The notes below the pieces were generated by a model. That model searched no databases. It was not told where the DNA came from and worked only from the letters and a program-made list of their open reading frames with translations. The position numbers were made by a program, and so were the translations under genes. From contig JAGVWA010000008.1 in NCBI GenBank assembly GCA_018304505.1, positions 1-16,503 on the forward strand: 16,503 nt of DNA, in the 5' to 3' direction. Shown here one piece after another: positions 2,247-15,458 of the stretch. How positions within the stretch are numbered: the first letter of the stretch is position 1; every line of letters begins with the position of its first letter. The DNA comes from Nanobdellati archaeon (lineage in GTDB: Archaea; B1Sed10-29; JAGVWA01).

Positions 2247-2828
2247 GTGGGACACACACAGATAACAACAATAGCAAGAGACACCAAGGTTCTTGATAAA
2301 TCGCTAGACGAGATCGATACCGACCGGGTTGTCTTCGTCACGGAGAAAAAGGACTTGAAAAAGACCCTTGGCCTCCGGAATAGGTTTGCGCTAAAGCACA
2401 AGCTCCCGACAGAGACCAGAACAATACTTGACATGAACAAGGTCGCAGAGACAATAGCGCATTACGAGAACCCGGTTTTGCACATCATCGAACACCACTT
2501 CATTAACTACCCCCTGATGAATGCGGCATTTGTCCTCGGGATACCGGTTTTTGTTTCCAACGGCAGGGGGCTTGAAAAAATCACTGGCCTGGAGTTCAAG
2601 TTCAGGGACCTGCTGAGCGAAAACCAGCAGAAGATCATCTCGACGCTGGCTGAAAAGCAAATGTCGATTAAGCAGTTGGCCCACACGCTCGACATAGAGG
2701 AGCGCGTCATATTCTACTACCTGCACGGAAAACAGTCCCTGAAGGGTCTAGTCAACCTGGGCATTGTAACACAGGAAAACGATCTACTTAAGATAACGCC
2801 CGTGGGCAGAATGATCGCGTGCTCGTGA
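2247..2828 (+). CDS. CARF-like (Csa3/DUF6293-type) Rossmann domain plus wHTH regulator
   Basis: Likely GTG start at 2247. N-terminal DRVVFV...AAFVLGIPVF; C-terminal LSENQQKII...SIKQLAHTL...LKGLVNLGIV...ITPVGR wHTH. Divergently transcribed from the TrmB gene. Confidence 0.6.
   Translation: MGHTQITTIARDTKVLDKSLDEIDTDRVVFVTEKKDLKKTLGLRNRFALKHKLPTETRTILDMNKVAETIAHYENPVLHIIEHHFINYPLMNAAFVLGIPVFVSNGRGLEKITGLEFKFRDLLSENQQKIISTLAEKQMSIKQLAHTLDIEERVIFYYLHGKQSLKGLVNLGIVTQENDLLKITPVGRMIACS
2805..2828 (+). repeat. Direct repeat A, copy 1 (last 24 bp of the CARF-wHTH gene, including TGA)
   Basis: GGCAGAATGATCGCGTGCTCGTGA, identical to 4066-4089. Confidence 0.95.
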
Positions 2829-2838
2829 TGCACATAAT

Positions 2839-3384
2839 TCACAGGGTCGTTTTCGCTATATGCTGAATCAGCGTTTCCATTCTGTTCACAAAGGCCCCCG
2901 CATTTTTCAATAGCCGTTCTGCTGCATCTTTTCCTGTTTCCTCTGTTACACCATATTGCGCAGTTTCCCGCTGCCTTCTCGCATACCTCAATTTTTGAAC
3001 GTACTCCTCTTCAAGCTCTCTAGCTTGCTTCAATTTTTCCAAGAACTCTTTTTCTAATAGTTTCTTTCTTACAAAGAAGACCTCAAGAGCTATTATCGTT
3101 GCAGTATGATTGTCGCTTTTGTAACCAATTGACGCAAGCGCAGCCAATGCAGAATGATACATTGCATAATACGCCGTAATGACAACCCAATCAAAGGCCG
3201 AGAAATCCTCTGGCAGCCCCAAGATTTTCTTTGCATCTTCCTTGTTGCTCAAACCCCTAGCAGCATCGCTGAAGAGGAGGTTGTGCCTGGCTTTTTCCAT
3301 AAAATGGGGCGCAACCCTTTTTATGAAGGGGGTTTTTCCACATAGCCCTCTGTCTTCAAATTCCCTGAGTTTCTGCCTTGTCAT
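2839..3384 (-). CDS. HEPN domain protein (UPF0332/COG1895-like), putative toxin
   Basis: W...AYYAMYHSALAAL...S.NH...RETAQY motifs; 4-bp overlap with the MNT gene. Confidence 0.88.
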   Translation of the reverse strand: MTRQKLREFEDRGLCGKTPFIKRVAPHFMEKARHNLLFSDAARGLSNKEDAKKILGLPEDFSAFDWVVITAYYAMYHSALAALASIGYKSDNHTATIIALEVFFVRKKLLEKEFLEKLKQARELEEEYVQKLRYARRQRETAQYGVTEETGKDAAERLLKNAGAFVNRMETLIQHIAKTTL

Positions 3385-4010
3385 TTAATCGCCTCAAACA
3401 CTGTTGCGTAGTACTTTTCATAACCATAAAGGATGACAGCGTCGAGCAGTATTTCCTGAGCCACCATTGGTTTCTCCGACTTAAGCATGTTCTTAAATTC
3501 AGTAGCGGTTGTAATCAACGGCGCAATGTCCTTGCCGTACCTTTTTTCAACCCCCAAGCATACTCTTTCTACTTTCTCCCGCACCTCAAAATTAGAAATC
3601 ATAATGAGGAGATCAACATCACTGTGATCTGTCTCAGTCCCTTTTGCATAGCTGCCATATAATACAACTGAAAGTAATTCGTTGGGTATTGCTTTTTCTA
3701 AATCCCTTACAATCTCACCAAGCAGTTTTTGAACAACAACATCTTTTTTCAGGTACCCCTGCGCCCTATTCAGGCTTATTCTCTCAAGGACATTCCTTGC
3801 TAAATTGCTTTCCATGTTGAGGCCTATGTAAGAATAAGCGCCAACCCGCCCCTCCTTAAATGCACCCTCATTTATGAGATGATGCACATGCCTATAAACA
3901 GCATCATATGATAACTGTGTAAGCAAAGAGAGCTTCCGGATAGTGAATTTCTTCTTCAAATCCGGCAAAAACTGCTCGAAAATCCCATCAATGAATTCAA
4001 CCTTAACCAT
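3381..4010 (-). CDS. wHTH-fused minimal nucleotidyltransferase (MNT), putative antitoxin
   Basis: LYGSYAKGTETDHSDVDL (GSx10DxD); N-terminal TIRKLSLLTQLSYDAVYRHV HTH. Confidence 0.9.
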   Translation of the reverse strand: MVKVEFIDGIFEQFLPDLKKKFTIRKLSLLTQLSYDAVYRHVHHLINEGAFKEGRVGAYSYIGLNMESNLARNVLERISLNRAQGYLKKDVVVQKLLGEIVRDLEKAIPNELLSVVLYGSYAKGTETDHSDVDLLIMISNFEVREKVERVCLGVEKRYGKDIAPLITTATEFKNMLKSEKPMVAQEILLDAVILYGYEKYYATVFEAIK

Positions 4011-4018
4011 ACGATTTC

Positions 4019-4058
4019 ACGATAATATTATCGTTAAAACAGGTATATAAACTTATCG
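4019..4058 (-). promoter_or_regulatory. TATA box and palindromic operator of the MNT-HEPN operon
   Basis: Perfect palindrome ACGATAATATTATCGT (4019-4034) lies between TTTATATA (minus strand, about 4044-4051) and the ATG at 4010. Confidence 0.65.
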
Positions 4059-4065
4059 AAAGCAT

Positions 4066-4089
4066 GGCAGAATGATCGCGTGCTCGTGA
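4066..4089 (+). repeat. Direct repeat A, copy 2
   Basis: Identical to 2805-2828. Confidence 0.95.
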
Positions 4090-13996: not shown

Positions 13997-14043
13997 GCAG
14001 GCCAAAACCGGAATTAAGCTCTTTTCGGAAGCTTGGAAGCCAC

Positions 14044-14083
14044 TAAAGGTAACCTTTATATATTATACACTTAATGTATAATA
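14044..14083 (+). promoter_or_regulatory. TATA box with inverted-repeat operator(s)
   Basis: TAAAGGT-A-ACCTTTA (14044-14058), TTTATATA, and TATTATACA-N5-TGTATAATA (14061-14083). Confidence 0.6.
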
Positions 14084-14085
14084 AC

Positions 14086-14715
14086 ATGATTAAACTAACT
14101 GAAAAAAGGCAGGGCGTGATACTGTGGATTTTGGAAAACAAAAACAGGAGCTGGTCTATTCATGAACTCTGCACCAGCCTTGGTGGCCTGACGTATCCAA
14201 GCACTTATGATTTTGTCAACCACCTCCTAGAAGCCGGGCATTTGATACGCACCCAAACACGAGAGTTCATGCTAGTGAATACCCGTGCCTTGATATCGCA
14301 GTTGGCATTCACATTCCCATTTAAAGCAAAGAAGAAAAGCTCTTTCTTCATCAAGTTAGGCATGAAAGACAAAATGAGTCTGCTGAAAGACATCAAACTA
14401 GATTACGCACTCACGGCATTTGCAGCCGCCGAGTTGCTGCACCCATATGTCAAGACCGAGAAAGTCCATGCATATGTTAGAACACGTGACATAGAGACAT
14501 GGAAGAAACTGCTAACCAAAAAAAACGCCAGGCCAGCCTATGAAGATGAAGCCAACTTGTTTTTGCTCCCTGTTGAAGAAAACTATTACTTCAAACTATC
14601 AAGAAAGATCCACGGTTTCAGCATATCCCCCCCGGGACTTGTTTTAGCTGATCTAATTTCAATAGGGGGGCTTGGAGAGGAGCATGCGAAGGTGATTGAG
14701 GAGGGGGTGAGATGA
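14086..14715 (+). CDS. wHTH-containing AbiEi-like antitoxin/regulator
   Basis: N-terminal HTH (SIHELCTSLGGLTYPSTYDFVNHL), YALTAFAAA, VHAYV, EANL and LVLADL..GG.GEEHA. The start is at 14086 or 14074. Confidence 0.7.
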   Translation: MIKLTEKRQGVILWILENKNRSWSIHELCTSLGGLTYPSTYDFVNHLLEAGHLIRTQTREFMLVNTRALISQLAFTFPFKAKKKSSFFIKLGMKDKMSLLKDIKLDYALTAFAAAELLHPYVKTEKVHAYVRTRDIETWKKLLTKKNARPAYEDEANLFLLPVEENYYFKLSRKIHGFSISPPGLVLADLISIGGLGEEHAKVIEEGVR

Positions 14716-15425
14716 TCGATGAAATCATGACCGAGTATTCAAACAAATACCTACTGAGCCTATTCAAAGATGTTAAACAAAAAAGGGACATTGGCTTGAT
14801 GGGGGGTTGGGCAGTTCACTATCTTTTGAAAGAAGCAGGCATTGAGCACATCGGCTCGAGAGACATTGATATTTTCTTTAACCCAAATAAAATCCCGTTT
14901 GAAAAAATCAGACAACTAATTGAAAGTAAGGGCTTTAAACCACACTCAACTTTTAGGTGGGTGAAGTTCATTCACCGGCTTAGTGGACGGGAAATGAATA
15001 CAGACGAGGCAAGCAAAATACCCCAATATGATCAGTGTGTTGTCTATGTTGATGTGGCAGCTCCACAACACATTGATAGCAGGGTAATGGAACAGCCGCT
15101 TTTAAATAGGGTGTTTGACGGAGAATTTAAGCAGATCATGGTGAGCAACACCAAGATCATGGTTCCCAATGAAAGGCTTATGATTGAAATGAAATTGAAT
15201 TCTTCCGGAGAGCGCGGCGATCCATTTAAAAAATCAAAAGACATTGCAGATCTTTTCATGTTAGTATACAATGAGCCAGTGTTGCTGGAAACCACTGACA
15301 AAAAACTAAGGAAAAAATTCCGCTCCCAGCTAGAGCATTTTAGAACGTCAGGGAGCCTCGCTGATGCTGCATCAATGCTGGGCGTGCCAGTAAGCCGCAT
15401 ACTACGCACCCTGGAGGACATTTAA
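14712..15425 (+). CDS. AbiEii/Pol-beta-like nucleotidyltransferase, putative toxin
   Basis: LMGGWAV, SRDIDI, MKL and KDIADL motifs; ATGA overlap with the upstream gene. Confidence 0.8.
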   Translation: MIDEIMTEYSNKYLLSLFKDVKQKRDIGLMGGWAVHYLLKEAGIEHIGSRDIDIFFNPNKIPFEKIRQLIESKGFKPHSTFRWVKFIHRLSGREMNTDEASKIPQYDQCVVYVDVAAPQHIDSRVMEQPLLNRVFDGEFKQIMVSNTKIMVPNERLMIEMKLNSSGERGDPFKKSKDIADLFMLVYNEPVLLETTDKKLRKKFRSQLEHFRTSGSLADAASMLGVPVSRILRTLEDI

Positions 15426-15440
15426 CCCATGAACTAGAAG

Positions 15441-15458
15441 CCAGCAGAACAGCGGTAA
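15441..15458 (+). repeat. Direct repeat B, copy 2
   Basis: Identical to 13979-13996. Confidence 0.92.

Follow-up and report, generated by a model that had tools for sequence, protein, structure and literature searches.

Small repeat-bounded inserts behind gene 3′ ends in a DPANN-type archaeal genome

Three inserts in one contig

The stretch of DNA analysed here (the window, 16,503 nt) is the complete contig C16 of a DPANN-type archaeal genome (G000), a 917-kb bin of 21 contigs, 92.8% complete, recovered from groundwater metagenomes. Below, G labels denote genomes, L labels fetched loci and C labels contigs of G000; the relatives compared number 40, and the nearest comparison genomes are 17 of the same order. 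The window carries three inserts, each placed just behind an intact host gene and each bracketed by a direct repeat of that gene's last bases: 24 bp ending on the TGA of a 235-aa gene, 20 bp at the end of a tRNA-Leu gene, and 18 bp ending on the TAA of mcm. These structures had been reported in a sequence-only reading of the window, and all three repeats were confirmed as exact matches that share no sequence with one another. The inserts had also been described as free of enzymes and of terminal inverted repeats. In agreement with this, Pfam searches found no integrase or transposase family among the open reading frames (ORFs) of the window, and no inverted repeats lie at the insert ends.

The first insert follows a gene on the plus strand (host gene 1; 2121–2828, 235 aa) that ends on TGA and is intact; tblastn alignments extend to its residue 235 in four of six orthologous loci (L064, L065, L067 and L069). 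The label "CARF" that had been given to this gene could not be sustained, since its only family match is a sub-threshold one to PF21476 (20.4 bits, cut-off 33) and neither NCBIfam nor the PDB sequences gave a match. The last 24 bases of the gene (2805–2828, the final base being the end of the TGA) return with 100% identity and on the same strand at 4066–4089. Between the two copies lie 1237 nt (2829–4065) with two minus-strand genes that overlap by 4 nt, one for a HEPN-domain protein of 181 aa (2839–3384; PF05168, 36.9 bits, cut-off 22) and one for an MNT-like nucleotidyltransferase of 209 aa (3381–4010; PF01909, 36.2 bits, cut-off 21, and PF18765), the latter with a sub-threshold match to the NCBIfam model MntA_antitoxin. 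By its domains and operon layout, insert 1 is a predicted HEPN-MNT toxin-antitoxin (TA) pair. Spare DNA amounts to 10 nt at one end and, at the other, to the 55-nt upstream region of the operon (4011–4065, minus strand), a putative promoter that contains a palindrome (an inverted repeat, 4015–4038) and a TATA-like TTTATATAC. In the comparison of insert ends, TTTATATA was the sole shared 8-mer. Insert 1 is 70% identical to a stretch of G018 over about 800 nt; no clear repeat was seen around this homologue (L014), whose borders are too near the contig start to judge. A HEPN/MNT pair was absent from the roughly 1.5 kb fetched at all six loci with an orthologue of host gene 1. Synteny is not conserved there, and the locus is therefore weaker evidence for an empty site than that of mcm.

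The third insert follows mcm (11936–13996, plus strand, 686 aa), which is intact, matches PF00493 at 293.9 bits together with further MCM domains, and has its C-terminal YKPAE in common with a relative. Its exact 18-bp repeat (13979–13996, ending on the mcm TAA, and 15441–15458) forms the core of a plus-strand match of 33 nt at 85% identity (13973–14005 and 15435–15467). The 1444 nt enclosed (13997–15440) encode, on the plus strand and with a 4-nt overlap, an AbiEi-like antitoxin or regulator of 213 aa (14074–14715; PF09952, AbiEi_2, 33.8 bits, cut-off 21) and an AbiEii-like nucleotidyltransferase of 237 aa (14712–15425). In this candidate AbiE pair, of the type IV TA or abortive-infection kind, it is the AbiEi partner that scores over its cut-off; the 237-aa protein itself matches no Pfam or NCBIfam model and is assigned to AbiEii through only a few of its 108 detected homologues, PF08843 (AbiEii) being found in five of them and PF14907 in two. 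A GSRDID-type nucleotidyltransferase motif is invariant in this family, which is spread across DPANN archaea and whose named members come from Diapherotrites/Iainarchaeum, Nanoarchaeota, Micrarchaeota and Altiarchaeota bins; G000 is called DPANN-type on this basis. Judged from sequence, inserts 1 and 3 would each be a self-contained two-gene addiction or abortive-infection operon, with 10–77 nt to spare per end.

For the mcm locus, unoccupied counterparts exist. Nine of ten same-order loci have, no more than about 60 nt behind mcm and with no insert between, the gene for a signal-peptide peptidase, the native downstream neighbour of mcm (15511–16380 in the window, plus strand; PF06550, 75.3 bits). 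Removal of insert 3 and one repeat copy from the window leaves an mcm/peptidase gap of 52 nt, in agreement with these loci. Empty sites in relatives, which the sequence-only reading had named as a test, were thus found for mcm only and at the order level only; no strain-level empty allele was seen in the contigs. The tenth locus (L007, G015) has about 420 nt with a tRNA-like T-arm in this position (1806–2214), and in G023 the same spot (L061, 1612–2222) holds one unrelated minus-strand gene, so that it may be a recurrent insertion site. The only repeat found at the G023 spot, a 17-nt pair at 88% identity, lies inside mcm and was judged to be a chance match. Insert 3 itself is 71% identical to G023 DNA over 1372 nt. 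The cassettes are closer to distant genomes than their host flanks are, the host genes giving short coding matches only.

The second insert is not a gene cassette, because its 102 bases (5372–5473, plus strand) are non-coding. It is rich in hairpins and contains no ORF, and the earlier description of the inserts as TA or defence cassettes thus holds for inserts 1 and 3 and fails here. The 20-bp repeat (100% identical, both copies on the plus strand) runs from the T-loop to 2 nt beyond the tRNA end (5352–5371) and recurs at 5474–5493, where it is followed by a module native behind tRNA-Leu genes. The tRNA-Leu gene was called by ARAGORN at 5284–5369 (plus strand; Rfam tRNA, 34.6 bits), a start that leaves the acceptor stem mismatched. 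Positions 5252–5258 (GCAGGGG) pair perfectly with the 3′ strand CCCCTGC, and the gene probably starts at 5252, with some 32 extra bases in the D region as a non-canonical intron; many tRNAs of G000 carry introns.

Insert 2 has matches elsewhere in G000, on C8 (17474–17556, 83%), C14 (11255–11294, 100%), C21 (56098–56179, 79%) and C20 (23216–23262, 87%), and its hairpin modules recur behind tRNA-Ser, tRNA-Ala, tRNA-Ile and tRNA-Leu genes. Since Rfam searches of the window returned tRNA-type matches only, it matches no described RNA family. The tRNA-linked hairpin family is also seen at C8 17497–17640, C21 55977–56200, C8 20236–20380, C14 11180–11300 and C20 23216–23262. One of its hairpins, GCAGCTTTYTT...AARAAAGGTGC, keeps its pairing despite two-sided changes between copies, and in two copies a nested insertion of about 100 nt splits the first hairpin. 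The module beyond the right repeat copy consists of two hairpins and is conserved behind three different tRNA-Leu genes (window 5494–5561, C3 149537–149602 and C19 7872–7940); window 5474–5561 is 81% identical to C3 149517–149602. This module has no Rfam match and may be a co-transcribed small RNA or a processing element.

Two further features lie between inserts 1 and 2. A tRNA-like gene with long internal insertions (4936–5085) was not called by ARAGORN, matches the Rfam tRNA clan at 4997–5074 (23 bits) and is 80% identical to C3 142645–142774. On the minus strand, at about 4620–4775, a small zinc-ribbon ORF reads MPIFPELKARMFDKTVCRKCKARNPKTVKKCRKCGSDQLRSKKQGKK; it may encode ribosomal protein L40e, which it resembles.

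The window was compared over its whole length with assembled contigs from four runs (X1, the source run, X3, X5 and X6). Contigs of X1 are identical to it across 1–4972 and 12542–16434. Contigs of X3, another sample of the same study, cover 2568–3405, 3425–4247 and 14605–15921, which takes in insert 1 at both its junctions and insert 3 at its right one. Contigs of both runs thus support inserts 1 and 3, which rules out an artefact of one assembly. The tRNA-Leu junction (5331–5405), in a repeat-rich and fragmented stretch, is covered by none of the contig pieces listed.

Recurrence in the genome and among relatives

The sequence-only reading had proposed that such inserts recur, and this is borne out. 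Exact maximal direct repeats of at least 17 nt at a spacing of 100–6000 nt number 153 in G000, where 20 genomes simulated with a Markov-1 model average 0.4, a difference that excludes a chance origin of the repeats. A scan for isolated repeats (flanks less than 45% identical) returned 49 pairs of at least 16 nt before low-complexity filtering. Beyond the three in the window, at least 11 further repeat-bounded inserts were identified in G000, which gives a total of at least 14, 12 of them gene-bearing, and others occur in further DPANN genomes. Inserts of G000 measure 0.1–1.8 kb, and their repeats 16–99 nt, mostly 16–61 bp. Their cargo, mostly TA pairs, includes AbiEii with AbiEi on C11 (repeat of 22 bp, ending 1 nt beyond the TGA of a 68-aa ORF), HicA with HicB on C4 (43 bp), a DUF6036 nucleotidyltransferase with a winged helix-turn-helix protein on C21 (23 bp, and another 40-nt match at 90%), an AAA_14/DUF4143 ATPase on C9 (29 bp exact and 53 nt at 94%, from 2 nt past a stop codon into the start of the next gene), another AAA_14 ATPase on C9 (61 bp), a pair of 80- and 234-aa proteins on C12 (99 bp, taking in a gene end) and a small pair on C14 (19 bp). 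Six exact repeats of 99–100 nt on contigs C7, C5, C12, C17 and C19 look like the upper limit of an assembler k-mer; given this length pattern, the 99-nt repeat on C12 may really be longer or may partly be an assembly effect.

Ends of RNA genes carry arrays of such inserts. For four of the 33 tRNA genes of G000, the last 16 nt recur within 3 kb downstream at up to two mismatches (five matches in all), and for none do they recur upstream. Three extra copies of the tRNA-Ala(TGC) end are found between one- and two-gene units, and tRNA-Phe is followed by two successive repeats, of 16 and then 18 nt, offset by 12 nt. On C15 the large-subunit (LSU) rRNA model ends at 25992 and a TA island starts 16 nt further, with a unit of 30–55 nt at 26008, 27111, 28669 (truncated) and 30487. 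The island encodes a PIN-like protein (PIN_3, sub-threshold) with a ParD-type partner, a PaREP1-like protein (sub-threshold) with a nucleotidyltransferase, a DUF2683 protein and others. The rRNA operon to which this gene belongs (C15 19800–32700, L030) has group I intron matches in both rRNA genes, one in the small-subunit (SSU) gene, split into pieces (L030 1440–1649, 49.8 bits, just below the gathering score), and one in the LSU gene (L030 4921–5180, 66.2 bits); repeats of 39 and 19 nt connect the two intron regions.

In all 12 gene-bearing inserts or arrays the GC content is 1.4–10.9 points below that of the 3-kb flanks. Nucleotide-level paralogues of the gene cassettes were not found in G000, insert 2 alone being multi-copy. 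Copy-and-paste transposition within G000 was rejected on the lack of intragenomic cassette copies, and by their composition and copy number the inserts are independent foreign acquisitions rather than internal transpositions. None of the 8-mers recurs in all 14 pairs of insert ends; words found in three or four ends are TATA-like or short and GC-rich, and an inverted-repeat pair was not found at the ends of any insert.

Relatives of the AbiEii-like protein of insert 3 were collected from 24 species-genome loci and 42 metagenome loci, the former with an alignment query, as a single query with the 237-aa protein gave none. The repeat test could be applied to 23 of the 24 species-genome loci (L057 being without a left flank). 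Of the metagenome loci, 34 were taken in and, after removal of seven with flanks too short, 27 tested; left out were the contig-end-cut or very partial matches L096, L099, L107, L108, L109, L111, L112 and L113. Several loci appear to be the same records, with the same best-repeat string and spacing (L074/L042, L077 and L079/L047, L083/L049, L090/L054, L095/L056 and L101/L059), and the genome and metagenome counts are therefore not independent. Exact flanking repeats of at least 17 nt were found at three of the 23 species-genome loci (L037, 205 nt; L040, 54 nt; L046, 19 nt) and two of the 27 metagenome loci (L080, at least 72 nt, at a contig end; L086, 28 nt). The closest homologue of insert 3, L038 (67% amino acid identity), has a different repeat of 26 nt with two mismatches at a spacing of 1475. 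Repeats vary between loci, and cassette homology to relatives ends 15–56 nt before them, so that no shared site marks the cassette ends. The viral contig collection held no relative of the AbiEii-like family or of the insert-1 nucleotidyltransferase. A metagenome query with the HD-domain protein of the window (5717–6913) likewise gave no relative, in a collection from which records close to the source genome may be absent.

Some of these loci are informative about the origin of the repeats. The homologue of insert 3 in G023 (L037/L062) belongs to an array 3′ of tRNA-Ser(TGA) with two extra copies of the tRNA end and none on the other side, and at L045 the tRNA-Ser(GGA) end is found three times on the 3′ side and is absent from the other; at the scoring used, up to two mismatches in 14 nt, about 0.02 matches would be expected by chance (calculated). 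At L040 an intact gene ends in the left repeat copy, and a 3′ fragment of that gene, about 147 nt long, forms the right copy. The final 54 nt of this fragment are identical; in the 93 nt before them 18 codons are changed, 11 synonymously and 7 conservatively, with no stop and no indel. Divergence of this coding-like kind indicates that the right copy had its history as coding DNA in a different lineage before a crossover in the identical stretch joined it to the resident gene. The same reasoning applies to L086, where the repeat copies represent two variants of a single small-RNA-like unit and match exactly in a 28-nt 3′ part.

A unit of about 50 nt (CTGAyGATGA, some 22 nt, GGGCGrACTGA) occurs in one orientation at the borders of successive cassettes at L046, L086, L080, L039, L051, L044 and L092, and has weak, sub-threshold Rfam matches to the archaeal C/D-box sRNAs sR2, sR18 and sR1. 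It could represent either the ends of C/D sRNA genes that served as insertion targets or a repeat belonging to the cassette arrays themselves. No paired unit of this kind was found in G000.

The lack of a visible enzyme extends from the window to the whole of the 92.8%-complete bin. Six-frame searches of G000 with nine Pfam families gave no match to tyrosine recombinase (PF00589), Cas1 (PF01867), reverse transcriptase (PF00078), serine recombinase (PF00239 and PF07508), TnpB/OrfB (PF07282), HUH Y1 transposase (PF01797) or DDE transposase (PF01609 and PF00665). G000 thus has not even a XerA-type recombinase, as is the case in 25 of the 40 relatives. PF00589 is present in the other 15, and in 7 of the 17 genomes of the same order, so that its absence is common in the group. 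Among host recombination genes, G000 encodes a Rad51/RadA-family protein (99 bits) and Hjc (33.6 bits).

Possible routes of insertion

We read the repeats as att-like junctions of minimal, integrase-less elements that would have entered by conservative recombination between a gene end and a short patch, with the enzyme acting in trans, and we regard this reading as about evenly balanced between right and wrong. Incoming DNA, probably circular, would carry the cassette together with a short patch matching the conserved 3′ end of a gene, such as a tRNA, the flank of 23S rRNA, mcm or another. One conservative, Campbell-type crossover inside the patch would place the cassette just beyond the gene end, rebuild the gene and leave patch copies on both sides of the cassette; since the target is regenerated, further cassettes could stack at the same site. 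The recombinase might be supplied by host homologous recombination (RadA and Hjc) or by a low-specificity recombinase on a transient element. The mobility itself we infer, as we do the circularity of the intermediate, a single crossover and the enzyme responsible. Conservative recombination is favoured because the targets are conserved ends of RNA and protein genes that are re-used in tandem arrays, and because repeat length is variable, some copies are of a diverged, donor type, and cassette ends are unconserved. The trans-acting or homology-driven route that had been proposed earlier is accordingly favoured on the strength of the diverged copy at L040 and the tandem arrays, while the repeats of the window, at only 18–24 bp, speak against it. 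Delivery to gene ends regardless of target sequence, which had also been proposed, is not demonstrated; the targets are mostly conserved RNA or protein gene ends, as they are for ordinary integrative elements.

Several observations weigh against this reading of the repeats as patch junctions. Cellular homologous recombination in Thermococcus kodakarensis needs at least 500 bp and the low-specificity integrase of pTN3 about 100 bp (PMC5495485), and recombination on 18–24 bp would be unusual by either route. Homology does not extend beyond repeat 1, its flanks being 26% and 17% identical over 80 nt, and the diverged-copy evidence comes from related loci and none of it from the window. Most loci of the AbiEii-like family have no detectable repeat. 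The apparent lack of an integrase is weak, suggestive evidence, because the bin is not complete and mobile elements frequently escape binning. A 336-kb contig of G007 contains at most one candidate, formed by two copies of a tRNA T-arm (20 nt) at a distance of 1178 nt, so that the abundance of inserts in G000 is specific to its lineage rather than order-wide, and any general host mechanism would call for a reason peculiar to this lineage. The contigs of the four runs showed no joint skipping an insert and no circular junction, the latter a check suggested in the sequence-only reading; the three joints listed (5082 to 8316, 7244 to 7376 and 14879 to 15235) have sides of 21 nt and lie off the repeat borders. 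Assembled contigs drop rare variants and are unable to show rare alleles or circles, and their silence does not count against mobility.

The chief rival explanation is that ordinary integrase-bearing elements have decayed, so that each insert would be the remnant of a separate provirus or plasmid that has kept its TA operon and both att sites, as in bacterial cis-mobilizable elements (CIMEs). We consider this rather unlikely, for all that the targets suit it: archaeal elements usually enter tRNA ends and 3′-distal parts of protein genes, with att sites down to 13 bp (PMC6563490), and all four tRNA repeats of G000 begin within the T-loop. Remnants are known as well, non-functional ones at many tRNA genes of Sulfolobus islandicus (PMC3718332) and CIMEs that have lost their integration genes, kept attL and attR and stacked in tandem (PMC5704250), and integrases are present in 15 of the 40 relatives. 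Since integrase-less, att-flanked remnants are thus known from decay (PMC5704250; PMC3718332), the undescribed system that had been suggested for this locus is not established. What fits decay poorly is the form of the inserts. In none of the at least 14 did the six-frame PF00589 search, which is not halted by stop codons, detect a piece of an integrase, and the inserts consist of an upstream region and two genes with only 10–77 nt to spare. Repeats so unrelated in sequence would call for many different integrases, and the smallest cryptic integrated element in the excerpts of PMC6563490, at 2.6 kb, still encodes its integrase.

The repeats could instead be target-site duplications. A staggered break or a template switch would capture a linear foreign fragment, fill-in would duplicate 16–60 nt, and the survivors in a compact genome would be insertions past stop codons, which spare both neighbours. 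Clean repeats of 24 and 20 bp with unrelated flanks, a range of repeat lengths from 16 to 99 nt with unconserved cassette ends, the 12-nt offset of the tRNA-Phe repeats (16 and 18 nt) and the lack of an enzyme in cis would all follow. We nevertheless find this explanation improbable, as the same tRNA, 23S rRNA or tRNA-Ser end is hit three or more times, which is unexpected of random breaks, and the coding-like copy at L040 and the variant copies at L086 cannot derive from a local target. G000 has, moreover, no Cas1, DDE, HUH or reverse transcriptase enzyme, and known enzymes, to our knowledge, make duplications of fixed length, which we count against it. That the repeats reflect chance, assembly artefact or local tandem duplication unrelated to insertion is hardly credible, and for inserts 1 and 3 it is largely refuted. 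Repeats of exactly 99–100 nt at several places in the bin do suggest k-mer effects, and the tRNA-Leu region is repeat-rich in public assemblies and split into small deep contigs. Against this stand the 153 repeats where 0.4 were expected, the contigs of X1 and X3 that span junctions of inserts 1 and 3, the lower GC of the cargo in 12 of 12 cases and the mcm site left unoccupied in nine of ten relatives.

It has long been puzzling how TA and other small defence modules move when they carry no mobility genes; Pandey and Gerdes are said to have proposed in 2005 that TA loci are mobile cassettes. G000 offers an unusually clean data set on this question, with about 14 minimal inserts, sharp borders, unrelated repeats, arrays at RNA gene ends and no detectable recombinase. 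If integration through a patch were the route, it would supply a concrete mechanism, a non-replicating circle with a cassette and a short target patch, would explain the pile-up of modules behind tRNA and rRNA genes, and would show that very small symbiotic archaea can gain defence genes without a dedicated enzyme. If decay were the route, the inserts would be a case of ordinary though extreme element reduction with the addictive module retained. A wider proposal, which we think unlikely to hold as stated, is that DPANN archaea host enzyme-free "patch cassettes" whose only mobility determinant is a copy of 16–60 nt of a conserved gene 3′ end (tRNA, rRNA flank, small RNA or mcm), and which host homologous recombination or a sequence-independent recombinase would integrate, excise and stack. 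Were it true, these would be integron-like arrays without integrase or attC and with a different "site" at each locus.

Comparison with known systems

Overall, the original observation is confirmed and extended, and its interpretation is partly supported. Several classes of element were considered and rejected. Insertion sequences, transposons and miniature inverted-repeat transposable elements do not fit, as there are no terminal inverted repeats, repeat length is not fixed and the gene cassettes are single-copy. A retroelement was likewise rejected; no PF00078 reverse transcriptase was found in G000. Integron cassettes are minimal, enzyme-free promoter-plus-gene units that form arrays with repeated sites, and TA cassettes are typical among their cargo. 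The inserts of G000 resemble them as small, enzyme-free units stacked between repeated sites and carrying TA genes. They differ in that no IntI (PF00589) and no shared attC-like site were found, the site being a locus-specific copy of the local gene end, and in that most of the cassettes have an apparent promoter of their own; the integron class was rejected on the first two grounds. Casposons, too, are inserted at 3′ ends of tRNA genes or of protein genes such as ef-2 with a target duplication (PMC6563490). They were rejected for the lack of Cas1 and of terminal inverted repeats, and G000 further differs from them in having no casposon polymerase and repeats of variable length.

In the literature covered, TA mini-cassettes of this kind, bounded by repeats and lacking an integrase, were not found described for archaea, although the att-site table of PMC6563490 may list such elements. 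The archaeal elements integrated by tyrosine integrases are close in structure, with short att repeats that overlap the 3′ end of a tRNA or protein gene, a gene rebuilt on insertion and a site re-used in tandem (PMC6563490), and with foreign cargo in which TA genes are common (PMC6563490, PMC4158269). Unlike them, the present inserts have no integrase within, nearby or elsewhere in the bin, measure 0.1–1.8 kb as against 2.6 kb for the smallest integrase-bearing element in the excerpts of PMC6563490, and use some 14 unrelated att-like sequences in one genome. Bacterial CIMEs likewise have attL and attR borders, lack integration and transfer genes and stack in tandem at a gene 3′ end (PMC5704250). 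CIMEs are decay products that move with a neighbouring integrase-bearing integrative and conjugative element (ICE) or integrative and mobilizable element (IME) (PMC5704250), whereas here neither a partner nor debris is seen, and the host is an archaeon with no detectable conjugation or integration gene.

The integrase of pTN3 from Thermococcus nautili, a tyrosine recombinase, acts in trans on any two identical segments and joins them with the same result as homologous recombination (PMC5495485), and an activity of this kind would explain repeats that are unrelated to each other. The enzyme requires about 100 bp or more (PMC5495485), as against mostly 16–61 bp here, and G000 has no PF00589 match. 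Taken together, we place the inserts with the known att-bounded integrated elements and not in a new category. They fit the logic of attP × attB or Campbell integration, and are unusual in the absence of a detected recombinase, in the minimal size of the unit and in the many unrelated "sites" within a very small genome.

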